From an uncultured Candidatus Saccharibacteria bacterium (GTDB lineage Bacteria; Patescibacteriota; Minisyncoccia; Phycocordibacterales; UBA2100): 64,000 nucleotides of DNA. The notes beneath the pieces were generated by a model, which did no database searches, was not told the origin of the DNA, and saw only the letters and a list, made by a program, of their open reading frames with translations. Below, one piece after another: positions 41,950 through 60,169 of the stretch. A program made the position numbers and the translations under genes. The DNA is taken from the NCBI GenBank assembly GCA_964399865.1, contig CAYNRJ010000002.1:161108-225107 (forward strand). The letters are read 5' to 3'. Within the stretch, counting starts at the first letter, position 1. Each line of letters opens with the position of its first letter.

Positions 41950-44262
41950 ATGGTGACAACAAACACATACAAAGTTAGAGGGATGCACTGCGCGAGCTGT
42001 GTCACCCTCATCCAAAACAAAGTAGCGAAAGTACCCGGTGTCGAATCCGTATCGGTCGGGCTCGCTCAGGAAAAAGCAAAGGTTGTTTTTTCTGGTACGG
42101 TGCTTCCGGTCGAGTCGCTCAACAATGCGATTTCTCCGTTTGGCTATACCCTTGAGGATACTGCAAAGTCCGCAGCTGAAATGAACATGTCGGCCGAGGA
42201 TCACGCTCGCATGGATCACTCCGGAGCGAACGCTGGAGAAAGAAACATGGCCCTTGAAATGAAATTTGTGATCCCGATGGTCATTTTCTCGTTCGTTATG
42301 ATGTTTTGGGACGTGCTCTCCGACAATAGCATCATTCCTGCAATGCCCGAAACGATCTATGAAGCATTCCATCACCTCATGCCAATCTTTGCGACTTTTG
42401 TTCTCTTTGGTATTGGGCGCAGGTACATTAAAGCAACATGGATATTCTTGAAAACTGGCATCGCCAATATGGACGTGCTTGTTGGTATTTCCACTATTGT
42501 CGCCTTTTTATACTCTTTCGCCGTCACTGCTTTTGAAGCACCTCTCTCCCGTTTTGTAGATGTAAGTTCAAATTTTTACGATGTCGTCATCATTGTCATC
42601 GGTCTCATTGCACTTGGCCAGTTCCTTGAGGCGCGAGCAAAACGAAAGACCAACGAAGCTCTCCAGAAACTGGCGCAACTTACCAGCAAGTTTGCGGTAG
42701 TCGAACGGAACGGCAAGGAACTTGAAATACCGATTGAAAAAGTCGAGGTTGGCGATGTAGTGGTCGTTAAGCCGAATGAACGTATACCTGTCGACGGCAA
42801 GGTCGTATATGGCTCATCGAGCGTGGACGAATCCAACCTCACCGGAGAGTCGGTGCCTGTGGATAAGCTTTCTGGTGCCGCCGTGTTTGCTGGGACACAG
42901 AATTTTCAAGGACTTCTCAAGGTGCAGGTTGAAAAAGATATGAAGGATACCGCTCTCGCTCATATCATAACCATTGTTGATAACGCACAGAATTCAAAGG
43001 CTCCGATTGAGAAAATTGCCGATCGGATTTCTGGCTACTTCGTGTACATAGTGATCGTGATTGCGGTTATTACGTTTGCTTCGTGGATGATTTTTGGACC
43101 CGGAGCTTTTGGTCTTTCTAAAGCATTCGCTCTGGCCCTCTCAACTACGATGGCCGTCTTGGTAATTGCCTGCCCGTGCTCGCTCGGTCTTGCGACACCG
43201 ACCGCAATCATTACTGGCGTTGGTACCGGTGCCCGGCGCGGCATTCTCATCAAGAACGCGGAGAGTCTTGAAAAGCTCTCAAAGGTAAGTGCAATCGTGT
43301 TCGACAAGACCGGAACACTTACCGAGAACAAACTCTCGATCGAAGGTATTTATTGCAAGGACGAAAACCATATCTGTGACGTGGAGGATACCGCCTTCAA
43401 GCAGTCCCTCATTTACTCCATGACAAAATCCTCAAAGCATCCAGTTTCGGCAAGCATCGCAAGCTGGCTGAAGGATGCGAAAGCAAAAAGCGTCGCTATA
43501 TCGGATATCAAAGAAGTGCCCGGCAAAGGTCTTACCGCCTCGTGGAGCGGCATGACGTATTATCTCGGCTCAATTGCCTATGTGGGCGAGATAACGAAGC
43601 AGACCGAAAAACAGATCAGAAAAGATTTCCACGACGGACGATTCGAGAGCGGACGTGAACTCTATCTCTCGAATGACAAAGAGGTGCTGTCACTTGTAAA
43701 GATTCACGACACGGTTAAAGCTGAGGCGAAAACAGAAATTGCCAAACTGAAATCGCTCGGCCTCAAGGTTATTATGGCAACTGGTGATCACAAAAAGACC
43801 GGAGAAGCCGTAGGTCGCGAGCTTGGAATCGACGAAGTGTTTTCTGACGTAAAGCCGGAGAATAAATTGAACATAGTATCAGATCTGCAAAAACAAGGTT
43901 TCAAAGTGGCAATGATTGGAGACGGGGTGAACGACTCTCCGGCACTCGCACAAGCCGATGTTGCGATCTCAATGAGCGACGGATCAGATATTGCTATTGA
44001 AAGCTCGGACATCGTGCTTCTGAAGGGTGACATCGGCAAAGTAGCAGAAGCGGTCAATCTTGCAAAGAAAACCAACCGCACCATTTGGCAGAATCTCATA
44101 TGGTCATTCGGATACAATTCGGTTGGTATTCCGGTGGCCGCAGGAATCCTCTTTCCGTTTTATGGATGGACGCTTAGTCCGGCGATTGCAGGAGCAATTA
44201 TGGCATTCGAGAGCGTAACGGTCGTAATGAATTCACTTCGTCTTAAAAATGCCAAACTCTAA
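41950..44262 (+). CDS. copA: copper-translocating P1B-type ATPase
   Basis: N-terminal HMA GMHCASCV, TM CPC motif (ACPCSLGLATP), DKTGTLT and GDGVNDSPAL. Confidence 0.95.
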   Translation: MVTTNTYKVRGMHCASCVTLIQNKVAKVPGVESVSVGLAQEKAKVVFSGTVLPVESLNNAISPFGYTLEDTAKSAAEMNMSAEDHARMDHSGANAGERNMALEMKFVIPMVIFSFVMMFWDVLSDNSIIPAMPETIYEAFHHLMPIFATFVLFGIGRRYIKATWIFLKTGIANMDVLVGISTIVAFLYSFAVTAFEAPLSRFVDVSSNFYDVVIIVIGLIALGQFLEARAKRKTNEALQKLAQLTSKFAVVERNGKELEIPIEKVEVGDVVVVKPNERIPVDGKVVYGSSSVDESNLTGESVPVDKLSGAAVFAGTQNFQGLLKVQVEKDMKDTALAHIITIVDNAQNSKAPIEKIADRISGYFVYIVIVIAVITFASWMIFGPGAFGLSKAFALALSTTMAVLVIACPCSLGLATPTAIITGVGTGARRGILIKNAESLEKLSKVSAIVFDKTGTLTENKLSIEGIYCKDENHICDVEDTAFKQSLIYSMTKSSKHPVSASIASWLKDAKAKSVAISDIKEVPGKGLTASWSGMTYYLGSIAYVGEITKQTEKQIRKDFHDGRFESGRELYLSNDKEVLSLVKIHDTVKAEAKTEIAKLKSLGLKVIMATGDHKKTGEAVGRELGIDEVFSDVKPENKLNIVSDLQKQGFKVAMIGDGVNDSPALAQADVAISMSDGSDIAIESSDIVLLKGDIGKVAEAVNLAKKTNRTIWQNLIWSFGYNSVGIPVAAGILFPFYGWTLSPAIAGAIMAFESVTVVMNSLRLKNAKL

Positions 44263-48285: not shown

Positions 48286-48478
48286 TCCGACGTCTTTTGC
48301 TTTTCTTCCTAAATGGCAGTGACGGTTGGTTATGGTGTTTGGCAGACGCTTTTTCTATTTTCCGCAGCAGCTGTATGCACACGCCCAGGAGTCTCTGAAC
48401 GTATTTAATGTTCTCAATGTCCTCTGGGCGCATCACCCAAGGGATGACACAGAGGTCCGAATATGCCGAGTTGGCAAC

Positions 48479-49972
48479 TTAAAAGCGAGTATCCATCCGC
48501 AACGGATGCCAACTCTCGCCATCATCCCATCTGTTTGGACTGAGATCGATGACCAAAAATTGTGGTGCGCCTCGGTCGAATTGAATTGCGTGGTGAGCGA
48601 CGAGCGTGAACGCATCAACGAGGTCGTCGTGTCGTTCAACACCAAAGCCGACAATTTGGCGTATTAGTGCCTCTGCACCATGCCTTGGAAACTTGATCTT
48701 CCCGCTCTGGATCATCGCTGAGATAGAGATGAGGCGCGAGCGTTTGTCAGCGCTCACTTTGATGCCCTCCACGTTTAGAGCGTCATGTGTCAATTGGTCG
48801 ACTACCGCTTTTTGATACCCAACTTCTTCAACTAGAATATGTGAGGAGTATATTTTCTTGTTTGCGTCGCTGATATCTTTAATCTGTTTTATCGTCTCCG
48901 GAAAATTCATGCGCTTGTTGATGATGTTGGGAAGGATGTAGACGCAGAAATTTTCATCATGGCTAATGAGCGCACTCACCATCGCGGTATAGTCAGCGGT
49001 TTCCTTTTGAGAGATTGCCAGATCAACACCGGTGAATATGCCGTGATAGGTATCTCGCCGCTGGGGGAGCGCATCGTAGTAGTGGATCCATGTTTTCTGT
49101 ATAACCTGATCTTCGTCGGGGACGATTCGTAGGAGATACTCTCGTTGCCAGGCATACTCGTTGCCACTTTTCATTTTCTCCTCGGCGATAGCTTCCTGCG
49201 TAGGGTACTTACCTGGCCAGGCAACAGCACCTTCGGTCGTTAACAGTGGGAACATTTTGAAGATTCCATTACGCTGCCCCTCATCGATATCTCGCCGTAG
49301 CCGCATGACCAAAGAATCTTCGTGTAGAAGATTGCCCACCACTACAAACCGGGTACCGCGATCACCGAGTGGCATCACTTCGCCGCAAAGCCAGTTATAT
49401 ATCTTTTGCCGATTCTCGTACGTTTTGACCGACGCCATATCCTCAAGGTCGTCACAGATAATGAGGTCGGGACGGTGCTGGTTGTGGCGAAGACCACGAA
49501 TACTTTGCTCAGTCGAGACCGCCATGATTTTTGCTTTCAGTTGCGGAAACACTAAAGCCGAAGCACCCCACTCACCGTTTTCTTCTTGAAAGGGTCCGAG
49601 GTCGTTGCGTAGCAAACTATTGCTCTCTAATTCGCGCTTCAAGTTAATGAGGTGTTGCTTGGCTTGAGTCTGCGTTTGGCAGATGATAAGCACGAATTTC
49701 TTTTGTTGCACGCCGAGCATGGCCCAGAGGGAGTATGAAAAGGTAACAAGGGTTGATTTACCGGAACCGCGAAAAGCGACAATGACCACGAGCTTGTTCG
49801 CACTATCTTCGGTAATGCGAAATATGTCCTTTTGGAATTCAGCTATGGGATACGTGACGTAGTGGGAGAAATACACGTAAAAGAACATGAGATGACTCTC
49901 GCGGGTCACCGTGCGTCTCACTAAACGATCCCGTGCGATCGCCTCGAATGTTACGGTATCATTCGTTTCCAT
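48479..49972 (-). CDS. terL: phage terminase large subunit
   Basis: Walker A AFRGSGKST, LIICDDLEDM Walker B-like ATPase core and a C-terminal RNase H-like nuclease. Confidence 0.85.
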   Translation of the reverse strand: METNDTVTFEAIARDRLVRRTVTRESHLMFFYVYFSHYVTYPIAEFQKDIFRITEDSANKLVVIVAFRGSGKSTLVTFSYSLWAMLGVQQKKFVLIICQTQTQAKQHLINLKRELESNSLLRNDLGPFQEENGEWGASALVFPQLKAKIMAVSTEQSIRGLRHNQHRPDLIICDDLEDMASVKTYENRQKIYNWLCGEVMPLGDRGTRFVVVGNLLHEDSLVMRLRRDIDEGQRNGIFKMFPLLTTEGAVAWPGKYPTQEAIAEEKMKSGNEYAWQREYLLRIVPDEDQVIQKTWIHYYDALPQRRDTYHGIFTGVDLAISQKETADYTAMVSALISHDENFCVYILPNIINKRMNFPETIKQIKDISDANKKIYSSHILVEEVGYQKAVVDQLTHDALNVEGIKVSADKRSRLISISAMIQSGKIKFPRHGAEALIRQIVGFGVERHDDLVDAFTLVAHHAIQFDRGAPQFLVIDLSPNRWDDGESWHPLRMDTRF

Positions 49973-50357
49973 GGCTTTTGAGATTTACATCTGCAAGCTC
50001 CAGTGCCTTTCGCACTAGTTCTTTCTGTTCCGGCGAGAGTTCCTGAATCGTATTAACGGTACCCTCGATTTCGACCCGCGTTTTATATGACGGGTGGTGA
50101 TGTTTGAGCCAGTACATGATCGCGGCAAAGTTCCTGTCCTTGACTGCGCCAATGAGCTGGCTTTCTGCTAAGTCGTTTACAAGGAGTCGACCATCAAAAA
50201 TGGCTTCATCTATTTTCTTGGCGAAATCTCCATCTTCATTTTTCCATCGATAGAAGGTCCAGCGGCTGATACCGAGTTTTTCACACGCAATCTGCACGAT
50301 TGGCGTTTTCTTTAGTTGCTCGAGCAATGCCTCTTTTGTCTGTTCTGTCTTTTTCAT
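49959..50357 (-). CDS. terminase small subunit-like HTH protein
   Basis: IACEKLGISRWTFYRWK helix-turn-helix. Immediately upstream of and overlapping terL. Start taken at MKKTEQTKEAL. Confidence 0.55.
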   Translation of the reverse strand: MKKTEQTKEALLEQLKKTPIVQIACEKLGISRWTFYRWKNEDGDFAKKIDEAIFDGRLLVNDLAESQLIGAVKDRNFAAIMYWLKHHHPSYKTRVEIEGTVNTIQELSPEQKELVRKALELADVNLKSHGNE

Positions 50358-51118
50358 ATGCGCTTCGCTTTCTTGCCCGTCATTTTTTCCCAACGCTTGA
50401 TGATGGTCTGGCAGTACTCGGAGTCGAGTTCGATACCGAAACAACGGCGTTTGGTCTGCTCGCACGCCAAGAGGGTCGTGCCGCTCCCAAGGAAGCCGTC
50501 AAAGATTACGTCGCCCATACTAGTGCTGTTGAAAACAAGTCGTCGTACGAGTCCGATTGGTTTGGTGGTCGGATGCAATTTGCTCTTGTTGGGGCGTGGG
50601 TAAAAGAGTACTGATTTATCTTTGGAACGGCGGAAATGATGCGTGCCATACCAGCCATACACGATGAGTTCGTGCTGTGGGGCGTAGTCCAATCTGCCGA
50701 TGACCGACTGCTGCTTTACCCACACAAGTAGCTGTGCAATCTTGAATCCGCTGTCAGCCATGCCGTCGCGCAACGACCACACCATCTTGTCGGCGTTGAA
50801 GATGTATGCGCTGTTTTTCTTGGCGAGGTATGGCACCAACGCCTTCAACCACTCCTTGCTGAATTGGCGGTACTCGTCATCCGATTGCAACTGGTCGCCA
50901 ACGATGTCCTTGTCTTTGGTGAGCGTGCGAAAGTTGCGTTTGGATTCGGCAACCGCAACCCCATATGGAGGATCGGTGCAGAGCACATTGACGCGCTCAT
51001 CGCCAAGCAACTTCTTGAGAAGCTTCGCATCGCGACAATCTCCTTGCGCGAGTCTATGCTCTCCGAGCTGCCAGATACTAGCGGAGCTTTTTTGATTTTT
51101 GTCTGGTGAGTTTTTCAT
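50354..51118 (-). CDS. DNA methyltransferase (N6-adenine/N4-cytosine, beta class)
   Basis: Motif IV DPPYG precedes motif I FDGFLGSGTT. Confidence 0.9.
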   Translation of the reverse strand: MKNSPDKNQKSSASIWQLGEHRLAQGDCRDAKLLKKLLGDERVNVLCTDPPYGVAVAESKRNFRTLTKDKDIVGDQLQSDDEYRQFSKEWLKALVPYLAKKNSAYIFNADKMVWSLRDGMADSGFKIAQLLVWVKQQSVIGRLDYAPQHELIVYGWYGTHHFRRSKDKSVLFYPRPNKSKLHPTTKPIGLVRRLVFNSTSMGDVIFDGFLGSGTTLLACEQTKRRCFGIELDSEYCQTIIKRWEKMTGKKAKRI

Positions 51119-52355
51119 AGCGGCGTATTACCAAGTCAACGAATATCGGCTCGCGTTCGACCAAGTACGCAGAGCGCTTGAGCTGTTCACATGCCACGAG
51201 CAAGCTGCCCGAGCCACCAAAACAGTCGAGAATGATGTCGCCGGGCTTTGTGCAGCGTCGCAGAGCTTTCTCATGGAGCATCGGCGGCTTCTCGGTGGGG
51301 TGCTGGTAGTCGGTGCCGTTGAGGCGTTTGACCATCCAAATGTCGATCATGTCGTAGATGTCCTCCAGCGTGCGGTTGCCAGTACCGATCTCTTTGTTGA
51401 ACACCTCAGACAAATTCAATACTTTCTCACTCAAGTACGGCCTACCGACCGTGCCGTACACGCACGGCTCGTATTGCTTGTTGAAAGCGACTTGTGGTGT
51501 AGGTGTTGAGTTGTTCTTTACCCACAAGCACACACGCTTGTTGGCGATGCCGAGTTCGGCATACAGCGTCTGCAAGAGCCATATGTACTTCTGATCACAG
51601 TACGTGAATACGTGCGCGTCCTTGTCGAGAACCGACAGCGCATTCTCAAGCGCCATCTTGAGGAACTTTTTGTATTCATTGTCCGGCTTCGCGTCATCGA
51701 CCGTGCCGCCGTAGTTACGCTTGCCGCCGATGCCTTTGTTGTAGTCGAGCGAAATATTGTATGGAGGATCTTGGAGAATGGACTGTGCTTTCTTACCGCC
51801 CATCAATTTATTGAGCACGTCAGGATCGGTGCTATCGCCGCAGATAATGCGGTGCGTGCCGAGTTGGTACAGTTCGCCCAACTTGGATTTCGGCTTTTTG
51901 ATTTTCTCCAGCTCCTTCTCGATATCAAACTCATCGTCCTCGACCTCGAGATCATCGAAGATGTGTGCCATATCGGTGTCGTCGAAGCCGCTTACAAGGA
52001 GCGTATCGATGTCGAAGTTGTCCGCGAGTGCTTGCCAGTCCCAATCGCCATGGATGCGGTTGCTTCCAAGGAGATACTGGTCGTATTCCTTTTGTGTCAG
52101 CTTGCGGTTTGGCACGCGCACGGGAATGCTCTCGTGCTCGCGTCCCAAGAGCTTGAGCACCATGAGACGTTGGTGACCGGCGATCACGGTGTTGTCGGCA
52201 TCGACGACCGGCAATTCGACGAGGTCAAACTTTTTGAGTGAGCGCTTCAAGTCCTCGATCTGCTTCGGCGACATCGTGCGCGGATTTTTTATGTTGGGCA
52301 CGAGGTCGCTAATCTTGCATTCGGCCGTGTGCCATTGAAGTCTTTGCTGTGCCAT
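51078..52355 (-). CDS. ParB-like nuclease N-terminal domain fused to a DNA methyltransferase
   Basis: N-terminal ParB/Srx fold (PVVDADNTVIAGHQRLMVLK). Then DPPYN and DCFGGSGS methyltransferase motifs. Confidence 0.88.
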   Translation of the reverse strand: MAQQRLQWHTAECKISDLVPNIKNPRTMSPKQIEDLKRSLKKFDLVELPVVDADNTVIAGHQRLMVLKLLGREHESIPVRVPNRKLTQKEYDQYLLGSNRIHGDWDWQALADNFDIDTLLVSGFDDTDMAHIFDDLEVEDDEFDIEKELEKIKKPKSKLGELYQLGTHRIICGDSTDPDVLNKLMGGKKAQSILQDPPYNISLDYNKGIGGKRNYGGTVDDAKPDNEYKKFLKMALENALSVLDKDAHVFTYCDQKYIWLLQTLYAELGIANKRVCLWVKNNSTPTPQVAFNKQYEPCVYGTVGRPYLSEKVLNLSEVFNKEIGTGNRTLEDIYDMIDIWMVKRLNGTDYQHPTEKPPMLHEKALRRCTKPGDIILDCFGGSGSLLVACEQLKRSAYLVEREPIFVDLVIRRYEKLTRQKSKKLR

Positions 52356-52439
52356 ATATCTCTATCTGCAGAGATTTCAGCGGCAACAATAAAATGGCTC
52401 TACGCATAGCGTGAGATGCTGAGAAAATCAGAAAACGCC

Positions 52440-52470
52440 CGCTGAGATTTCAGCGGTTGCAACAATGAGT
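52440..52470 (-). terminator. rho-independent terminator (minus strand)
   Basis: Minus-strand ccgctga-aatc-tcagcgg followed by gcgttttctgatttt. Confidence 0.45.
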
Positions 52471-52477
52471 ACTCCTC

Positions 52478-53299
52478 TCAGTTCTCTTCAGAATCTTCTT
52501 CTTGGATCGCATTATCAAGCAATCTACCTCCTGAGCGATGGAGCTCACCACCACCGCGCAGAATGGATTCTGATCTGAGCTTGCACTTGAGCTGGTAGCC
52601 GCAGTGGGGGTCGTAGAAATTGAAGGGACTGTCGGCAATCCCGAGCGCTGACGAAAGTTTTTGTGCTAGTGCCTGTTTGTTTTTCTGGAGTGCTGCTTTT
52701 GTTATGTTAAGTGAGCGGGACAAATTCTCCGTCGTCGGTACCATCATCTTTTTCTGCTCTGCGATAATGGATAGCTGGAGGAGAAGACCCCATTGCTTAT
52801 CTGGTTTACGGTCGCGCGTATTCTTGCGCGCAAAGCCGAGATCCGAATAATCGCAGTCTCGCATTCGGTTTCCTTTATAGAAGACCGAGAGCGTATAGAG
52901 ATCCTTGAAGCGTAATTCAAGATGTTCCCATCGTGTATCACTCGGCAACTCAACTACAGCGCGTTTCGATTCGATAATTTCAAGATCTCGAGGGATTGGT
53001 GATACTGCCCATTCTGGCCGGGAAGGAATAGTAAGTGGTGTGGCAGCTGCTTTCATGGCGATGTCGAACCGCGACATATCTTCCACGGCAGCCTGCATCA
53101 TTCGGTGAAATCGCGTTAGCGATTCCAATGCAGGAGCCATGGATAGCATCATGCGTTTTTGAGATTCGTGCAAATTAGCTAGTGTTTGTGCATATGGCGC
53201 TATCATACGGGCGGCATACGTGGCATATCGTTCAGCATCGTGCTGAGCGTTTGTGAACAGTGAAAGTGTATTGGATCTGAGCACGGGGAAGGTCGACAT
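52478..53299 (-). CDS. hypothetical protein (273 aa), divergent from the repressor gene
   Basis: ORF only. No family recognised. Confidence 0.45.
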   Translation of the reverse strand: MSTFPVLRSNTLSLFTNAQHDAERYATYAARMIAPYAQTLANLHESQKRMMLSMAPALESLTRFHRMMQAAVEDMSRFDIAMKAAATPLTIPSRPEWAVSPIPRDLEIIESKRAVVELPSDTRWEHLELRFKDLYTLSVFYKGNRMRDCDYSDLGFARKNTRDRKPDKQWGLLLQLSIIAEQKKMMVPTTENLSRSLNITKAALQKNKQALAQKLSSALGIADSPFNFYDPHCGYQLKCKLRSESILRGGGELHRSGGRLLDNAIQEEDSEEN

Positions 53300-53321
53300 G
53301 CTTCCATTCTAACACTAGTTG

Positions 53322-53348
53322 ACAGTTGTGGACAAGGGTGTATCATTT
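53322..53348 (+). promoter_or_regulatory. sigma70-type promoter TTGACA-N16-TATCAT
   Basis: ttgacagttgtggacaagggtgtatcat ends 6 nt before the ATG at 53354. Confidence 0.5.
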
Positions 53349-53353
53349 CTCGT

Positions 53354-53971
53354 ATGAACCGGACCACAAAGAAGGACTTAGAAGGCTACGCTCTTATACG
53401 CAATCAGATCATGCATACCGGTGTTACGCCCTCCCTGCGTGAGATTGGGAGGGCTATTGGATACGTATCACCGCGCTCTGTACAGCTCATGTTGAAGCGA
53501 CTCCAAGTTCGAGGGCTTCTTTTGTATGAGGGGGGCGTTATTAAGCTTTCCTCGAAGAAAACCCCAACGATGTCGGAGCAGACAGTGAATGTTCCGTTGG
53601 TTGGTTCGGTTGCGTGCGGCCTACCGTCGCTTGCAGAGCAAGATGTTGAGGCGCTTATCCCGATTTCAACGCGCATTGCACGGCCCGGGCATACATACTT
53701 TCTGCTTCGTGCTGTCGGAACATCGATGAACAAGTCGGGCATCAATGATGGTGACCTGGCGCTAGTGCGTCAGCAGCCGAGCGCCAGCGACGGAGAGAAA
53801 GTAGTGGCCCTCATCAACGACGAGGCGACGATCAAACATCTCCATCACGAGGAGGGGGTGATTGTGCTCAAGCCGAACTCTACGGATCCGGCGCACAAGC
53901 CGATAGTTCTTTCAGACGAATTTATTATTCAGGGAGTTGTTACCGCAACACTCCCTGCCAATCTCTATTAG
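53354..53971 (+). CDS. LexA/CI-like repressor with an S24 peptidase domain
   Basis: N-terminal winged HTH. C-terminal S24 VGSVACGLP...AVGTSMNKSGINDGDLALV (Ser-Lys dyad). Confidence 0.85.
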   Translation: MNRTTKKDLEGYALIRNQIMHTGVTPSLREIGRAIGYVSPRSVQLMLKRLQVRGLLLYEGGVIKLSSKKTPTMSEQTVNVPLVGSVACGLPSLAEQDVEALIPISTRIARPGHTYFLLRAVGTSMNKSGINDGDLALVRQQPSASDGEKVVALINDEATIKHLHHEEGVIVLKPNSTDPAHKPIVLSDEFIIQGVVTATLPANLY

Positions 53972-53973
53972 GT

Positions 53974-54201
53974 ATGGCAAAAAACATACACACCGTTTAT
54001 AACTCCGACCGCGAACGCTGGGAGAATAAGGCCGAAGGCAAAAGCGACCCGCTCTCAACGCATCGTACAAAAGAGAATGCGCTCAATGCGGGCGAGAAGA
54101 TCGCCGAGACAAAACACGTTGAGCATTTTATTCACGGCAAGGATGGCAAGATCCAAGAGCGTAACAGCTACGGCAACGATCCGTTCCCACCGCGTGGGTA
54201 A
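53974..54201 (+). CDS. DUF2188-family small protein
   Basis: HGKDGKIQERNSYGNDPFPPRG matches the conserved C-terminus of DUF2188. Confidence 0.6.
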   Translation: MAKNIHTVYNSDRERWENKAEGKSDPLSTHRTKENALNAGEKIAETKHVEHFIHGKDGKIQERNSYGNDPFPPRG

Positions 54202-54222
54202 TTATTATTTAAATTCAAAAAT

Positions 54223-54669
54223 ATGGACACAGTCTTTGTTAGTTTTGATTATACGAATGATAAGCACTACAAGTACCTCCTTGAGGCGTGGCACGCCAAT
54301 CCAAAATTCCAGTTTGTTTTTGATGACGGTACGCCAACCGAGATCGACAGCACCAATGTAGGGCGCATCAAAGCTGCACTCACTTCAAAAATAAAGGAGG
54401 CGACTCACACATTGGTTATCGTTGGCAAGCAAGCTAATCAGCGACATTGGAAGAGCGACCTCATTGGTTACAAGAATTGGATTAACTTTGAGGTAAACCG
54501 AAGTATCCAAGAAGGCAAGCGACTTGCTGTTGTGCGTCTTGAACGCTCGTATGATCTGCCCGAAGAACTATCTGGAGGTCAGTATTCATTGGTTGAGGGA
54601 TTCAGCGAGACGAATGTTATGCAGGCGCTGAATACTGCTCCGTACCAACGAGTAACTCGTTATGCCTGA
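54223..54669 (+). CDS. TIR-like domain protein (DUF1863 / MTH538-type, ThsB-like)
   Basis: N-terminus VFVSFDYTNDKHYKYLLEAW and TLVIVGKQANQRHW...NFEVNRS resemble the DUF1863 TIR-like consensus (VFISF.Y..D...). Confidence 0.6.
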   Translation: MDTVFVSFDYTNDKHYKYLLEAWHANPKFQFVFDDGTPTEIDSTNVGRIKAALTSKIKEATHTLVIVGKQANQRHWKSDLIGYKNWINFEVNRSIQEGKRLAVVRLERSYDLPEELSGGQYSLVEGFSETNVMQALNTAPYQRVTRYA

Positions 54670-55258
54670 TTCTGTTTCAATTCTCTACGATCACTACAAA
54701 GACACTTGCGCGATAGTCGGCGAGGCGGTAAAGCGGCGTGATCGTGCCATGTTGCTTGTAATCATTGCAGCGGCATTTTTCGCCTTTCAAACAATATTCC
54801 CGAGCGCAGCTGATCTTGCGGTGACCGATTATCTCGGTTTTAAATTCGGACTGACACTCGGGATTAACCTATCTATCATTGGTAATGTGGTCTGGGTGCT
54901 TATTCTTTTGTTTACTTTGCGATACTTTCAAACCGCCGTGTTTGTCGAGCGACAATACGCATATCTCCATCAACTTGAAGATAAGCTAAACGTTGCGATC
55001 GGTCAGGACCTAATCACTCGCGAGGGAAAATCGTATCTTGCTGACTATCCGCGGTTCTCAGATTGGATGTGGATGATCTACACGATCATATTTCCAGCGC
55101 TTTTATTTTTTGTAACCTGCGTCAAGATAGCTGCAGAATGGCTCAGCACATCTGGCGAGGGGGTTACCTTTGGGTTGCTTGTTAATACCGGAATATTCAT
55201 ACTGCTTGCTGTTTCAATCGGACTATACCTTGGCATGTTGCACTTCAAGAAAAAGTGA
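54662..55258 (+). CDS. 4-TM membrane protein, candidate effector
   Basis: Four predicted TM helices. Start overlaps the stop of the TIR-like gene by 8 nt, implying translational coupling. Confidence 0.55.
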   Translation: MPDSVSILYDHYKDTCAIVGEAVKRRDRAMLLVIIAAAFFAFQTIFPSAADLAVTDYLGFKFGLTLGINLSIIGNVVWVLILLFTLRYFQTAVFVERQYAYLHQLEDKLNVAIGQDLITREGKSYLADYPRFSDWMWMIYTIIFPALLFFVTCVKIAAEWLSTSGEGVTFGLLVNTGIFILLAVSIGLYLGMLHFKKK

Positions 55259-55810
55259 CAGAGCAGAAGTTCAAAATAGTGTCACTTTTGTCACTTTTTG
55301 CACCCTACACAGGCCCGACTGAGACGCCTCAATTTGGTACACTGAAAGTTCTCGAAGAACCCTTACACGGCCTCAACTTGTGGGGTTCCAGACTGAGTCA
55401 GTCAGCAAAATGAGCACCGCGAATTTTGCGGCGGGACTTGGATTGGGAGAGGGTCGGAGAACGGGAGTTCTCCGTGGAGGAAGGAATGGGAAAACCGTGG
55501 CGTTTCCCAGGAGTCCTTGTCCCGCGACCCTGTTTTTTTGCAAGCCTTTACAGTAGATGAAGACGTTGTACTGTTCTGCGTATATGAACAGCAATTTTTT
55601 ATATACTCTGTTGGCTGTCGTTGTAATGGGGTTAGCGTTCGCTTTTTATTGGTACTCCTATAGACCAGAGCAGATCAGGAAAAATTGCTATCAAGCGGTC
55701 CTTCAAACATCTGATTTTGACCTAAACTACCGAAGTTGTTTGCGAGACCACGGCCTAGATAAATAAACAAAAAGGGAGCATGAAATTAGGTCCAATTCAA
55801 TTCGCGATAC

Positions 55811-56851
55811 ATGGTAACTCATGAACAGGCAGCAATTTGGGGGAATTTCTGGCAGATATTCCACCTGTCTAAAATGCTTATCTCCGATTACGAAAATATT
55901 CCCACGAAACAAGAACTGTTAAAAAATCTCCCCCAAATTGAAACGGCATATATAGATTCAATTATTGTTCACGTAGCAAAAATTTTTACACGCTCTGATA
56001 ACGAGCCGTTTAGTTTGGCGAAGTTTAAGACACTTTGTCGTGATGAAATCAGAAAAGAAATTGAAGGAGTAGAGGGTGAGTACAAAGATATCATTGGTAA
56101 GATAATTACAAACAGAAACAGGCTTATTGCGCATCTCGATAAAACGTTCTATGAACTTTATTTTTCGAAAAGCGAAATAGAAAGAATGGAACAAGCAATG
56201 AGCACAGGGATGGGGATGAGTTTAAACGACGCAAAGAGTATATACGCCTCAATGCCCCGAACCGCAGACAAAAGCAAAGAACGGTATTCTTTTGGCGACT
56301 TTAGAGAAGATTTCCCACGTATAAAGGCGATGATAGATAAGCTCGAAGATATTTGGGGTAGATCAATGCCATTTGTGGAATCGGGAGTCCGAGCGACAGA
56401 AAGAAATGCCTCTGCCTTTTTATCGCTTTCATTACGTTTTGCTAAAGAGTATCTCAAACAATTAAAGGCCTTGAGGAAGATACATGGAGAAGCTGAGATT
56501 CAAGAATTAAATGAACTAACTGTTCATCATAGAGCACTCTGGACAGCACTTATAGTTGAAATTAGGAAATTGTTCGGTGCATCTTTCAAAGGGTACAAAA
56601 ATTATTCTTTAAGAGAAATTGATTTCTTTAAAAATGAACCTCATAAAACAAAAATTGATACTGTGTATGGCAATCATATAATTCAAAGAATTTTGAAAAC
56701 AAGTAATAATTTTACTGTTCACCTCAGTCAAGAGCAGGAGGTTCCGTTAGATATAGTGCAAATTTGTAATTCCAATCTTGAGGATTTACTTACTCAACTT
56801 CAAGAGCCAATGGAAGCTTTTAGAAACACTCTCGAGCCTGAGGGAGTTTGA
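55811..56851 (+). CDS. hypothetical Abi/HEPN-like protein (Rx4-6H motif)
   Basis: NRNRLIAHLD contains the R-x5-H HEPN-type motif. AT-rich gene composition. Confidence 0.35.
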   Translation: MVTHEQAAIWGNFWQIFHLSKMLISDYENIPTKQELLKNLPQIETAYIDSIIVHVAKIFTRSDNEPFSLAKFKTLCRDEIRKEIEGVEGEYKDIIGKIITNRNRLIAHLDKTFYELYFSKSEIERMEQAMSTGMGMSLNDAKSIYASMPRTADKSKERYSFGDFREDFPRIKAMIDKLEDIWGRSMPFVESGVRATERNASAFLSLSLRFAKEYLKQLKALRKIHGEAEIQELNELTVHHRALWTALIVEIRKLFGASFKGYKNYSLREIDFFKNEPHKTKIDTVYGNHIIQRILKTSNNFTVHLSQEQEVPLDIVQICNSNLEDLLTQLQEPMEAFRNTLEPEGV

Positions 56852-56857
56852 AAAGTT

Positions 56858-57661
56858 ATGAGCAAAAATCAATTAACCCGAGTTCAACATTTTGTTCCGA
56901 GATTCATTCTAAAAAGATTTATTAGTTCAGGTAAGTTCAAGTTGGTTGATAAGAGATACGAAAAGTCCTCCCAGAGAACTCCCAAAGGGAGTATGTATAA
57001 GGAATATTTTTATGAACACGATGATTTTAACCCAAATGAAGTTGAGGATCTGCTCGCATCAAGAGAGGGTATATATGCTCCGATAATTGAAAAAATAATT
57101 TCAAGACAGGAACTTACTCTCAAAGAGCATCGGACGCTAATAGAATTTCGACATATCACATACTACAGATCAAATGAGTTTATAGGTTTCCATACATACA
57201 AGAAAAATAGAGGAGAGAGAAGCTCTGACCAAAGACTAGATTGGTTACGGATTAATGGAATATTTGGCTCCGATATCACAGATAAAAACATCAAAAGGTC
57301 TCAGCTTAAAGCTATCCAGAGCGTTATTAGTAAAAAAGATTCGGCTTATCAGATAAGTTCGGTTACCCCAATATGTCTTGTCGCTATAGCGAAAGACAGA
57401 AAGTTTGTTATTGGTGACAATGGTTCTATTTCAATGGGAGATGAATTTGAAGGAATGACGGTTATTGTCATATCGCCAACTCATGCCCTCGCTTTTCCAC
57501 GAGCAAGTACAGCACTTGAATTGATGAAAAAGATTGGAGTTACCAGCCAAACATCTACGATTGTGCGTTTAGAGATTGATAACGACCTCGTTGATACACT
57601 TAATGAGCGTATTGTTGATAATGCCTTCGAGTATTATATTGACCCGAACGCCCGTGCGTAG
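56858..57661 (+). CDS. DUF4238-like protein
   Basis: N-terminus VQHFVPRFILKRF resembles the DUF4238 H-h-V-P-x-F-h-L-k-x-F motif. Sits 6 nt downstream of the preceding gene. Confidence 0.5.
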   Translation: MSKNQLTRVQHFVPRFILKRFISSGKFKLVDKRYEKSSQRTPKGSMYKEYFYEHDDFNPNEVEDLLASREGIYAPIIEKIISRQELTLKEHRTLIEFRHITYYRSNEFIGFHTYKKNRGERSSDQRLDWLRINGIFGSDITDKNIKRSQLKAIQSVISKKDSAYQISSVTPICLVAIAKDRKFVIGDNGSISMGDEFEGMTVIVISPTHALAFPRASTALELMKKIGVTSQTSTIVRLEIDNDLVDTLNERIVDNAFEYYIDPNARA

Positions 57662-57669
57662 GATAAAAG

Positions 57670-57696
57670 AGTTCCAATATCGTCCATGACCCCCAG
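57670..57696 (+). repeat. intergenic direct repeat copy 1 (aGTTCCAAyATCGTCCATGACCCCCAG family)
   Basis: agttccaatatcgtccatgacccccag, ~25 nt upstream of the 57720 ATG. Confidence 0.5.
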
Positions 57697-57719
57697 TTAA
57701 TAAAGAATCAAAAAAGATT

Positions 57720-57971
57720 ATGGAATTATCTGAAAACCAATGTCCAAGTTGTGCCTATGATCTTGGTTTTAGGGCATGGGATAGCGAATCGCCTTCTTTG
57801 GAGATATGTCCGTCATGTGGAATTCAATTTGGTTATGACGATATGGCCGGCGGAGATGTTCAGAAAAGAAAGAAGCTTTATGTGAATTGGAAAGCAGCTT
57901 GGAACGCAAACGAAAGACAGCCCCTCAATAAACGGCAGATCCTAGATGTTATAAACGCTAGTTTGATTTAG
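57720..57971 (+). CDS. small zinc-ribbon protein
   Basis: CPSCAY...CPSCG motifs. Confidence 0.45.
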   Translation: MELSENQCPSCAYDLGFRAWDSESPSLEICPSCGIQFGYDDMAGGDVQKRKKLYVNWKAAWNANERQPLNKRQILDVINASLI

Positions 57972-57974
57972 AAT

Positions 57975-58001
57975 AGTTCCAACATCGTCCATGACCCCCA
58001 G
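57975..58001 (+). repeat. intergenic direct repeat copy 2
   Basis: agttccaacatcgtccatgacccccag, followed by cggtatact (58005-58012) and the dgkA ATG at 58020, a leaderless arrangement. Confidence 0.55.
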
Positions 58002-58019
58002 CACGGTATACTGATTTTT

Positions 58020-58364
58020 ATGAAGTACTGGATTAAGCGATTGTCGCATCCGTTTCGAGGATTGTATTATGCATTCACCCACGACAGTGCAATCCAAATC
58101 GAAACAGTTCTCGCTATAGTAGGCCTGCCAACTGTTTATTTCTTATTCAACCTTTCTGAAAGTGAATTACTATTACTGGTATTCTGTTGGTTTTTTGTAA
58201 TGGTTGCCGAGCTTCAGAACTCAGCAATTGAAATAGCACTTACTAAAATTCACCCTGAGCACGACGAGGCGATTGGGCGTAGCAAGGATCTCGCTTCAGC
58301 GGCGGTGGTCTGGGCAGCAACTTTTGGACTCGTGTGCCTTGCATTCGTGATTTTTAATAATTAG
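58020..58364 (+). CDS. dgkA: diacylglycerol kinase / undecaprenol kinase family protein
   Basis: VMVAELQNSAIEIALTKIHPEHDEAIGRSKDLASAAV matches the DgkA E-x-x-N-(T/S)-A-I-E motif. Three TM helices. Confidence 0.8.
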   Translation: MKYWIKRLSHPFRGLYYAFTHDSAIQIETVLAIVGLPTVYFLFNLSESELLLLVFCWFFVMVAELQNSAIEIALTKIHPEHDEAIGRSKDLASAAVVWAATFGLVCLAFVIFNN

Positions 58365-58373
58365 CATAGGAAA

Positions 58374-58395
58374 ATTCCAAACTCGTCCATGATCC
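58374..58395 (+). repeat. intergenic direct repeat copy 3 (degenerate)
   Basis: attccaaactcgtccatgatcc. Confidence 0.4.
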
Positions 58396-58410
58396 TTAAC
58401 GGTTGATTTT

Positions 58411-58836
58411 ATGAAAGCAACACCTGCTCTAATACCGGAATGTAAAGTTAGGGATTTTGAGAAAAGCATAGACTTCTATACTCGATTGGCCGAATTCAAA
58501 GTTTTGTACGATAGGCCAGAAGAGAAATTTGCGATGCTCGATAGAGATGGTGCGAGGCTTATGATCGAACTCCTGGAAGCTCAGGACAGGTGGGCAGTTG
58601 GCAAGCGAGAGTATCCGCTTGGCCAGGGGATTAATTTTCAAATTGAAGTAGAGAACGTTGAGGCACTATATAAGAATTTTAATGATGCAATATATCCGAT
58701 ATTCTTTGAGATGGAAGAGAAGTGGTATCGTCGAGTCGACGTGGAGGTCGGTAATCGGCAGTTCTTAGTACAAGATCCTGATGGGTATCTCTTGCGCTTC
58801 TTCCAAGATTTAGGTGCTAGACTGATCCAGAAATAA
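58411..58836 (+). CDS. glyoxalase/bleomycin-resistance (VOC) family protein
   Basis: Paired beta-alpha-beta-beta-beta modules and overall similarity to the bleomycin-resistance/glyoxalase I fold. Confidence 0.7.
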   Translation: MKATPALIPECKVRDFEKSIDFYTRLAEFKVLYDRPEEKFAMLDRDGARLMIELLEAQDRWAVGKREYPLGQGINFQIEVENVEALYKNFNDAIYPIFFEMEEKWYRRVDVEVGNRQFLVQDPDGYLLRFFQDLGARLIQK

Positions 58837-58905
58837 TTGAAGCTTCGGGTCAGATCCCAATCCTCAGCGAATCAAAACACAACGATTTCTTGATATAGTG
58901 TATTT

Positions 58906-59205
58906 ATGGAGAAAATCCGAGCCAAAGGTTTGGAATCCAAGCTATCTTACTCTGATGAGCAGATGGCCCTAGTTCGTGTGCTCGTGCAAGATGAAGCGTG
59001 CAGCACCGAAATGCTCAATCAACTTACAGGAATTCCTATCGGCTCGATCAGTGGTTTGTGTAAAAAACTCGATATCGAACGTCCTCTTAATTTCGGCGGA
59101 GGAAAAACAGGAGCCATACGTCGCGCGCGAGCGATGCCTCTTATAAGGAGAAAATACGGAGCGCAAATAGAGGCGCTTTTTGGAGTTAAGAATGACTTAG
59201 AATAA
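58906..59205 (+). CDS. hypothetical protein (99 aa)
   Basis: ORF only. Possible HTH. Confidence 0.4.
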   Translation: MEKIRAKGLESKLSYSDEQMALVRVLVQDEACSTEMLNQLTGIPIGSISGLCKKLDIERPLNFGGGKTGAIRRARAMPLIRRKYGAQIEALFGVKNDLE

Positions 59206-59209
59206 GCAT

Positions 59210-59253
59210 AGCTCCAACATCGCCTCTCTATGGAGGCAGGTCCATGACCCCGG
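59210..59253 (+). repeat. intergenic direct repeat copy 4 (with a 17-nt insertion)
   Basis: agctccaacatcgcc[tctctatggaggcagg]tccatgaccccgg, followed by tggtacaat (59269-77) and the ATG at 59284. Confidence 0.45.
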
Positions 59254-59830: not shown

Positions 59831-60169
59831 ATGCGTATCTGGGATATTCATCCAAAGCATCTGTGCCGCAAGCATCTCCTTGGGGAACATCGAGAGCTCC
59901 ATGGCTTGTGGAACATTCTGACCAAACACAACGGAAAGGGTGGATATTCACATCATCCAGAGACTCGAAGGTGGGTAGGAAAAACTCGCGCGCTCTATGC
60001 GCGGCATGAAGCACTTGTTATAGAAATGACTCGTCGAGGATATGTCCATCGGTCTCCTCTAGATAAGCGACTCGCGAGGGGAAGTGGTGATCAGAAAGTT
60101 CTCATCGATTCAATCCCTGCACAGAAGATCCGTTTGAATCAGAAGCCTTGTGATTGCAGATTCGACTGA
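59831..60169 (+). CDS. pyrimidine-dimer DNA glycosylase (T4 endonuclease V/DenV-like)
   Basis: HLLGEHRELHGLWNILTKHNGKGGYSHHPE aligns with the DenV L..HL..EYRELP region. Confidence 0.65.
   Translation: MRIWDIHPKHLCRKHLLGEHRELHGLWNILTKHNGKGGYSHHPETRRWVGKTRALYARHEALVIEMTRRGYVHRSPLDKRLARGSGDQKVLIDSIPAQKIRLNQKPCDCRFD

Follow-up and report, generated by a model that had tools for sequence, protein, structure and literature searches.

A tandem AbiU2-like HEPN gene and a DUF4238 gene as probable independent defence modules stacked at a variable spot in a Patescibacteria genome

The window analysed here, a 64,000-nt stretch of contig CAYNRJ010000002.1 from an uncultured Candidatus Saccharibacteria bacterium (assembly GCA_964399865.1, positions 161,108 to 225,107 of the forward strand), contains two adjacent open reading frames (ORFs) on the plus strand. 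The first (55811–56851) encodes a 346-residue protein with a Pfam HEPN_AbiU2 domain, whose homologues align from residue 1, and the second (56858–57661) encodes a 267-residue protein with a Pfam DUF4238 domain. We conclude, with moderate confidence, that they are two independent single-gene defence modules, probably co-transcribed and stacked in a variable hotspot. The new element of the locus is a tandem variant of the AbiU2 HEPN; otherwise, the locus consists of known kinds. An earlier sequence-only reading had described the pair as a recently acquired, AT-rich two-gene operon of defence-linked proteins next to a repressor locus; its observations are confirmed here and its interpretation is supported, with refinements.

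The first protein matches Pfam HEPN_AbiU2 (PF18734) over residues 17–112 with E=4e-8 and 33.4 bits, above the gathering score of 26.8. Its N-terminal domain, here called N-type HEPN (residues 1–190, positions 55811–56380, plus strand), is 52–68% identical to stand-alone proteins of ~193 residues, and the majority of homologues have this length and span residues 1–190 only. The R-x5-H motif of HEPN type noticed in the sequence-only reading, NRNRLIAH, lies at residues 101–108 and is intact (codons R102 to H108, positions 56114–56134, plus strand), and R102 and H108 are invariant across 11 homologues (alignment A2). In both its score above the Pfam threshold and its intact Rx5H motif, the domain is like the AbiU2-family HEPN represented by Lactococcus AbiU. 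AbiU2 is a HEPN family of abortive-infection (Abi) proteins for which a context of 'R-M operons', that is, restriction-modification operons, has been given (Anantharaman et al. 2013, PMC3710099), and a single AbiU2-HEPN, carried on an integron cassette, gives protection from both T4 and T7 (bioRxiv 10.64898/2026.03.17.712381).

The short-form relatives share this context. All 12 short-form loci with readable flanks have an orthologous N6_N4 methylase gene (Mod) upstream, a ResIII helicase-nuclease gene (Res) downstream, or both (loci counted: L006–L011, L092, L093 and L095–L097), and the short-form HEPN gene is the middle gene of a Mod-HEPN-Res restriction operon. The close short relatives are thus embedded in restriction-modification operons like the published AbiU2 proteins, whereas the window protein lies outside any such operon, with no Mod or Res gene adjoining it, and carries, fused to its N-type domain, a further AbiU2-like HEPN without the catalytic arginine. 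The closest relatives of both the HEPN and the DUF4238 protein come from metagenome-assembled genomes (MAGs) of Paceibacterota, Kaiserbacteria and Portnoybacteria. As to the operons themselves, Res is a ResIII helicase with a C-terminal TnsA-like nuclease match; a SEC-C motif protein comes after the operon in L006 and L007, with a serine recombinase as well in L007.

Residues 191–346 (positions 56381–56848, plus strand) form a second, divergent AbiU2-like domain, here called C-type HEPN, which was recognised by phmmer, hhalign and cross-detection between hidden Markov models (HMMs). Its motif, TSNNFTVH (codons S298 to H304, positions 56702–56722, plus strand), is degenerate, with the arginine replaced by serine and the histidine kept. 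A C-terminal extension of 150 residues is present in three lineages only, those of the window protein, P0002 (locus L004) and P0003 (locus L005). When residues 191–346 were searched exhaustively with phmmer against 1.84 billion cluster representatives, 23 proteins were returned, mostly stand-alone and 150–176 residues long, and only 3 tandem fusions occur among the cluster representatives. Sub-threshold HEPN_AbiU2 matches are given by 8 of 10 C-type relatives. In addition, hhalign aligned the short N-type profile with the C-type profile at a probability of 86% (E=5e-6), with both Rx5H motifs superposed, and the N-type and C-type HMMs each detect members of the other type. An earlier N-versus-C comparison based on three C-domain sequences, which gave an hhalign probability of 8%, was superseded by the search that added 20 sequences.

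The state of the second motif differs among C-type proteins. Most stand-alone members in alignment A3 read T-R-N-T-F-T-A-H, and the histidine is invariant; the arginine position is serine or glycine in the window protein, P0063, P0065 and P0078, and in alignment A2 it is glycine in P0002 and serine in P0003. The stand-alone members nearest to the window protein have likewise lost the arginine. The first protein is a tandem AbiU2-like HEPN whose second domain is without the catalytic arginine. The fusion is also found as a single ORF in L004 and L005, as independent occurrences, and a quick neighbour-joining tree of the N domains left the monophyly of the long forms unsettled. Stand-alone C-type HEPN genes stand directly after a gene for a Type IIG/ISP restriction enzyme (L106–L108) or a DUF2726 protein (L109–L111). 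Specifically, the C-type HEPN of L106–L108 (5001–5501) begins 6 nt after a 1013-residue Type IIG/ISP restriction-methylase and is followed by a helix-turn-helix SocA_Panacea gene. These small stand-alone C-type proteins constitute a family without a Pfam model of its own.

The ribonuclease (RNase) centre of HEPN proteins combines two Rx4-6H motifs, brought together across a dimer interface. Since such a site needs two motifs across a dimer, the two fused domains of the window protein probably pair within one chain. Cas13 likewise carries two HEPN domains in one polypeptide, with both Rx4-6H motifs retained and CRISPR RNA as its guide. The window protein could, in the same way, build one RNase centre intramolecularly, but its second motif lacks the arginine and its domains are small and of AbiU2 type. 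Pairing of the N-type with the C-type domain is predicted to give an asymmetric and probably restrained RNase.

The structural matches of the HEPN protein bring in a different explanation, namely that the locus is a toxin-antitoxin addiction module that stabilises the island, with the HEPN protein as a toxin neutralised by its own Arg-less C domain or by the DUF4238 protein and with no primary anti-phage role. The Foldseek matches of the HEPN model with the highest probabilities in the PDB are 7ae6 (0.90), a HEPN/MNT toxin-antitoxin system, and 3jrt (0.80), an integron-cassette HEPN, both with a TM-score of ~0.53 on the target and E-values above 1. These matches to HEPN proteins, like the all-helical model, count for the preferred reading as well. 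An addiction module would also suit the mobile, AT-rich and variable setting, and one stand-alone C-type HEPN adjoins a gene of the SocA_Panacea antitoxin type. However, searches with Pfam and PADLOC found neither an MNT nucleotidyltransferase nor any other known HEPN antitoxin, the ORFs neighbouring the pair in the window hold no nucleotidyltransferase domain, and the locus has no attC sites such as would accompany an integron cassette. The ties of the relatives to restriction-modification operons, and thereby to defence, and the direct anti-phage evidence for DUF4238 further argue against an addiction module, which we consider very unlikely.

The second protein matches Pfam DUF4238 (PF14022) with E=5e-26 and 92.2 bits, against a threshold of 27, over profile positions 2–274 of 281. 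Both proteins of the pair hence exceed curated Pfam thresholds. The DUF4238-like opening proposed in the sequence-only reading, VQHFVPRFILKRF, occupies residues 9–21, of which Q10, H11, F16, L18 and F21 do not vary among 24 homologues. The alignment of these 24 sequences contains 43 invariant columns, including H11, E53, H54, E96, R98, H99, R104, E107 and D187, and the close grouping of these unvarying His, Glu, Asp and Arg residues points to a possible enzyme-like active site. The AlphaFold2 model of the protein is confident, with a predicted local distance difference test score (pLDDT) of 89 and a predicted TM-score (pTM) of 0.88. A Foldseek search of the PDB with this model returned nothing at E≤1e-3, and profile searches of PDB sequences gave no match; the DUF4238 model has one significant fold match only, to a protein from Stenotrophomonas phage Smp131 that is itself uncharacterised (E=5.6e-6). 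A confident model with no solved structural relative makes the family worthwhile for work on structure and mechanism. The public annotation of the gene product, P0012 (222 residues), starts at an internal methionine and omits the conserved N-terminal QHFVPRF; the homologues support the 267-residue form.

DUF4238 is known as a single-gene defence system from the P2 hotspot of E. coli, where it gives strong protection against T7, with its molecular function stated to be unknown (Rousset et al. 2022, PMC9122126), and a DUF4238 domain also occurs within a multi-domain E. coli TIR defence system (PMC11350192). Published anti-phage evidence thus exists for both families of the pair (PMC9122126; PMC3710099; bioRxiv 10.64898/2026.03.17.712381), in agreement with the defence association proposed from the sequence. 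Like the E. coli P2-hotspot gene, the window gene covers nearly the full profile, has no conserved partner gene and occupies a variable hotspot next to mobile-element genes. It differs in that the protein is only ~25% identical, over ~100 N-terminal residues, comes from a Patescibacteria-type host and is known from sequence alone. The window DUF4238 protein is a member of the same Pfam family in a distant subfamily.

The question of whether the two genes form a system was addressed by a census of their neighbourhoods. We collected 80 DUF4238 loci, each with 5 kb of sequence on either side, from the species genomes of GTDB, and the N-type and C-type HEPN HMMs matched nothing in these 80 loci, even at E≤1. 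Conversely, no DUF4238 gene was found in the ~14 distinct other HEPN loci, that is, outside copies of the same genome (L001–L003). The genes 3′ of the other long-form HEPNs (L004 and L005) bear no relation to DUF4238 or to one another. Similarly, the five close DUF4238 loci have no conserved partner gene: their neighbours are unrelated except for one ORF common to two MAGs from the same study, and Pfam found nothing significant among them save a borderline nucleoside 2-deoxyribosyltransferase (28.9 bits against 28.8). The pair therefore occurs only in this genome. Because the pairing is so limited, the two genes are better read as two stacked modules than as a dedicated two-gene system, and of the two-gene operon put forward earlier, probable co-transcription stands, while conservation of the pair as a system does not.

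The arrangement of the genes is consistent with co-transcription. The stop codon of the HEPN gene (TGA, 56849–56851) and the start codon of the DUF4238 gene (ATG, 56858) leave a gap of 6 nt, as had been read from the sequence. A Shine-Dalgarno (SD)-like GGGAG (56842–56846, plus strand) lies in the 3′-terminal part of the HEPN gene, 11 nt 5′ of the DUF4238 ATG, a position that may be compatible with co-translation of the two genes. In addition, a promoter-like TTGATA-16-TATAAT (11/12 positions; 56655–56682, plus strand) is located within the HEPN gene, 176 nt 5′ of the DUF4238 ATG. Such sites number 16 in the region, against 12.2 expected from consensus matching; as a consensus match, this one may at most allow DUF4238 to be expressed separately.

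The main rival is an obligate two-component system, in which one of the proteins, DUF4238 for instance, would detect infection and license the asymmetric tandem-HEPN RNase, or the roles would be swapped. Several observations weigh against our reading, and some of them favour this rival. The 6-nt gap, the SD-like sequence inside the upstream gene and the near-identical GC content (GC) and GC at third codon positions (GC3) of the two genes fit a single co-inherited unit. The same is true of a junction repeat, described below, that is missing between HEPN and DUF4238, yet present in each of the next three intergenic spacers. Moreover, the DUF4238 domain of the E. coli TIR system acts as a partner within a multi-domain protein system (PMC11350192). 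The sample of close relatives is also small, with three lineages of long-form HEPN and five close DUF4238 loci. Against the rival stand the absence of the pairing from all 80 DUF4238 loci and from the ~14 distinct other HEPN loci, the published assays in which each family protects alone and the 11/12 promoter-like site 5′ of DUF4238 within the HEPN gene. We judge an obligate two-gene system unlikely.

Other points against the preferred reading concern the individual proteins. PADLOC, PHROGs and NCBIfam gave no match for the HEPN or the DUF4238 protein; in the case of DUF4238, PADLOC-DB 2.0.0 returned no match of this type, and this release may hold no DUF4238 model. Compared with the validated E. 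coli TA007 protein, the window DUF4238 protein is 25% identical over 106 residues by BLASTP (E=2e-5), and hhalign with the validated E. coli protein gave a probability of 68.6% over ~100 N-terminal columns. At about 25% identity over ~100 residues, transfer of function from the validated protein is tentative. For the HEPN protein, the AlphaFold2 model is all-helical and of moderate quality (pLDDT 73, pTM 0.58), and it has no match in the PDB at E≤1e-3. Separately, tblastn against 50,697 phage records and pattern scans of IMG/VR yielded nothing for either protein.

The composition of the two genes also counts for the reading as stacked modules. GC is 0.369 in the HEPN gene and 0.376 in the DUF4238 gene, with GC3 of ~0.33, and the LexA and DUF2188 genes upstream have GC of 0.52–0.53 and GC3 of 0.58–0.62. 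A profile of 1851-nt windows over the 64 kb gave a mean GC of 0.487 with a standard deviation of 0.031; the target, at 0.371, deviates strongly and is the GC minimum of the whole 64-kb window, which bears out the AT-richness relative to the flanks that had been claimed. This deviation, together with the two above-threshold Pfam matches, runs counter to both outcomes that the earlier reading had named as refuting it. However, homologues of HEPN and DUF4238 are AT-richer than their own flanks in 16/16 other loci examined. Low GC is therefore a trait of both gene families, and by itself it does not date the acquisition.

Synteny provides the better evidence of acquisition. A block running from the terminase gene TerL to the 198-residue hydrophobic protein gene upstream of the pair is common to five related contigs (L098–L102), with 78–85% nucleotide identity. 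By blastn, its part from 53305 to 55298 (plus strand) is 84–85% identical to the five contigs, and nothing matches beyond. The homology ends at 55298, ~40 nt past the stop codon of the 198-residue protein gene, and from there on the gene content differs from lineage to lineage. The abrupt end of homology and the differing downstream genes place HEPN and DUF4238 at the block's right edge, in a variable spot. The acquisition inferred earlier from composition is supported by the synteny break at 55298, as a gain in such a spot. In L098 and L101 the block is followed by glyoxalase genes that are no orthologues of the window's, so that no clean 'empty site' could be delimited and only the left breakpoint, 55298, can be placed.

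The genes immediately upstream of this breakpoint include putative defence genes. Proceeding toward the pair, a LexA gene and a DUF2188 gene are followed by a ThsB-like TIR gene (54223–54669) and the 198-residue protein gene (54662–55258), which overlap by 8 nt and together span 54223–55258 on the plus strand. The TIR protein matches Pfam ThsB_TIR (E=2.3e-12) and PADLOC ThsB (1.4e-12), in line with the TIR-like cassette recognised earlier. Its 198-residue partner has no Pfam domain and is hydrophobic and apparently membrane-spanning, with the helices read by eye. The two genes are conserved in L098–L102, always after LexA-DUF2188, and the 198-residue partner is 88% identical at the amino-acid level. 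The cassette resembles Thoeris in its ThsB-type TIR, but no SIR2 or Macro ThsA domain was detected in the 198-residue partner. TIR systems with transmembrane (TM) partners protect E. coli (PMC11350192), and the window TIR, similarly, adjoins a hydrophobic, apparently membrane-spanning protein. We propose the two genes as a candidate TIR-TM defence system in Patescibacteria. With this cassette directly upstream, the earlier description of the region as a small defence island is fair.

The proximity of the TIR gene allows for one further explanation, in which the DUF4238 protein is an extra effector or sensor for the ThsB-like TIR protein in Thoeris-like signalling. The TIR gene is 2.2 kb upstream of DUF4238 on the same strand, and the E. 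coli TIR defence system mentioned above includes a DUF4238 domain. Nevertheless, the conserved partner of the TIR gene is the overlapping 198-residue protein gene, and the two occur in L098–L102 without DUF4238. Furthermore, the conserved block stops at 55298, ahead of both HEPN and DUF4238, and GC is 0.46 in the TIR gene as opposed to 0.37 in the pair. A functional link between TIR and DUF4238 is, in our estimate, highly improbable.

Under the preferred reading, that of two stacked single-gene modules, two horizontally mobile anti-phage genes would have landed side by side to the right of the conserved LexA-DUF2188-TIR-TM block. The tandem HEPN descends from restriction-associated HEPNs, and it has left the Mod-HEPN-Res operon and gained a second, Arg-less HEPN by fusion. 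Infection would release the restrained RNase, leading to RNA cleavage, translation shutdown and abortive infection, and the DUF4238 protein would act separately, probably by an enzymatic route.

Very few defence systems of Patescibacteria have been described, and a single phage of the group is known (PMC12366544). A stack of TIR-TM, HEPN RNase and DUF4238 would indicate that these reduced genomes, too, maintain several layers of immunity at a variable hotspot. As for the tandem HEPN, it documents a route by which an accessory of a restriction operon becomes a free-standing protein through fusion to a catalytically crippled HEPN, and it offers a simple natural test case for the regulation of asymmetric HEPN active sites. 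Nothing here overturns current ideas, and the locus is fairly ordinary.

Downstream of the pair, the spacers between genes are filled by a repeated element of ~30 nt. Its first copy (57664–57696, plus strand) starts right after the DUF4238 stop codon, and further copies of the same element lie at 57969–58001, 58367–58399 and 59209–59251. The core of the repeat is TTCCAAYATCGTCCATGACCCC, and the full consensus is TAGAAnAGTTCCAAYATCGTCCATGACCCCCAG; the 22-nt core has 3 matches, against 0.00 expected. The repeat fills the spacers after the DUF4238, zinc-ribbon and DAGK genes, and a fourth copy, with an 18-nt insert, follows orf99. It was found neither elsewhere in the window nor in 110 other loci, although a weak half-copy is present near 55786. 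On the minus strand, the repeat reads GGGGG-TC-ATG and continues into an ORF of 5–17 codons opening MD (MDD(I/V)GT.. in the two best copies). Possible roles for it are those of a cassette junction or of a regulatory element between cistrons.

An integron was rejected as the source of the repeats: inspection of the aligned copies revealed no attC cores (paired RYYYAAC/GTTRRRY) and no hairpin, and no tyrosine recombinase was present among the ORFs scanned downstream. A bolder proposal is that the tandem HEPN and DUF4238 together constitute a single mobile, Patescibacteria-specific sensor-effector abortive-infection cassette at the head of an array joined by the ~30-nt element (57664–59251), which would be a junction type not described before, and assembled by a non-integron form of gene capture; we hold this to be quite unlikely. 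Directly 3′ of DUF4238 lies the gene of an 83-residue double-CxxC zinc-ribbon protein (57720–57971), which has weak matches to the PHROG 'Lar-like restriction alleviation protein' (E=4e-4) and to the PADLOC candidate PDC-M14A (E=6e-3).

On the left margin of the AT-rich region, a candidate ORF of 69 residues (55557–55766, plus strand; GC 0.40) encodes a hydrophobic helix and has identical copies in L001–L003 only. The GC-rich spacer at 55290–55560 folds no better than its shuffles (z=-0.74), and an Rfam scan of 55000–58500 gave one chance snoRNA match (E=0.93).

The repressor that the sequence-only reading had placed beside the pair is LexA. It passes the cut-off of the NCBIfam lexA equivalog (137 bits against 111) and shares a 90%-identity cluster with 'Patescibacteria group' LexA. 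Together with the MAGs that supply the closest HEPN and DUF4238 relatives, this points to a CPR/Patescibacteria bacterium as the probable host. The repressor is thus a LexA equivalog within the conserved TerL/TerS/methylase block; a complete prophage is not evident there. This block of ~7 kb (48292–55298 in the window, shared with L098–L102) comprises TerL, TerS, two ParB/N6_N4 methylases, a 273-residue ORF, a divergently transcribed lexA and DUF2188-TIR-TM. Some of the contigs have a serine recombinase within ~2 kb of the terminase gene. The block may be a small phage-derived or satellite-like element, with LexA itself as its repressor.

Farther upstream, a serine integrase beside tRNA-Gln, a CopA-type ATPase and an M23 peptidase precede TerL/TerS and the two ParB/N6_N4 methylases. 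A complete prophage at 33.7–53.3 kb was considered and rejected, with only TerL, TerS, the M23 peptidase and the serine integrase being phage-like. The 770-residue 'ATPase' of this interval is a CopA-type P-type ATPase. A comparison of the tRNA-Gln/serine-integrase end (33.4–33.8 kb) with everything downstream of 48000 for att-type direct repeats found no shared exact word of at least 11 nt. Two genes of the region have accessory functions, one for the CopA-type copper P-type ATPase (41950–44262) and one for a T4 endoV-like pyrimidine-dimer glycosylase (Pyr_excise, E=4e-26; 59831–60169), and both are putative stress-resistance cargo mixed with the defence genes.

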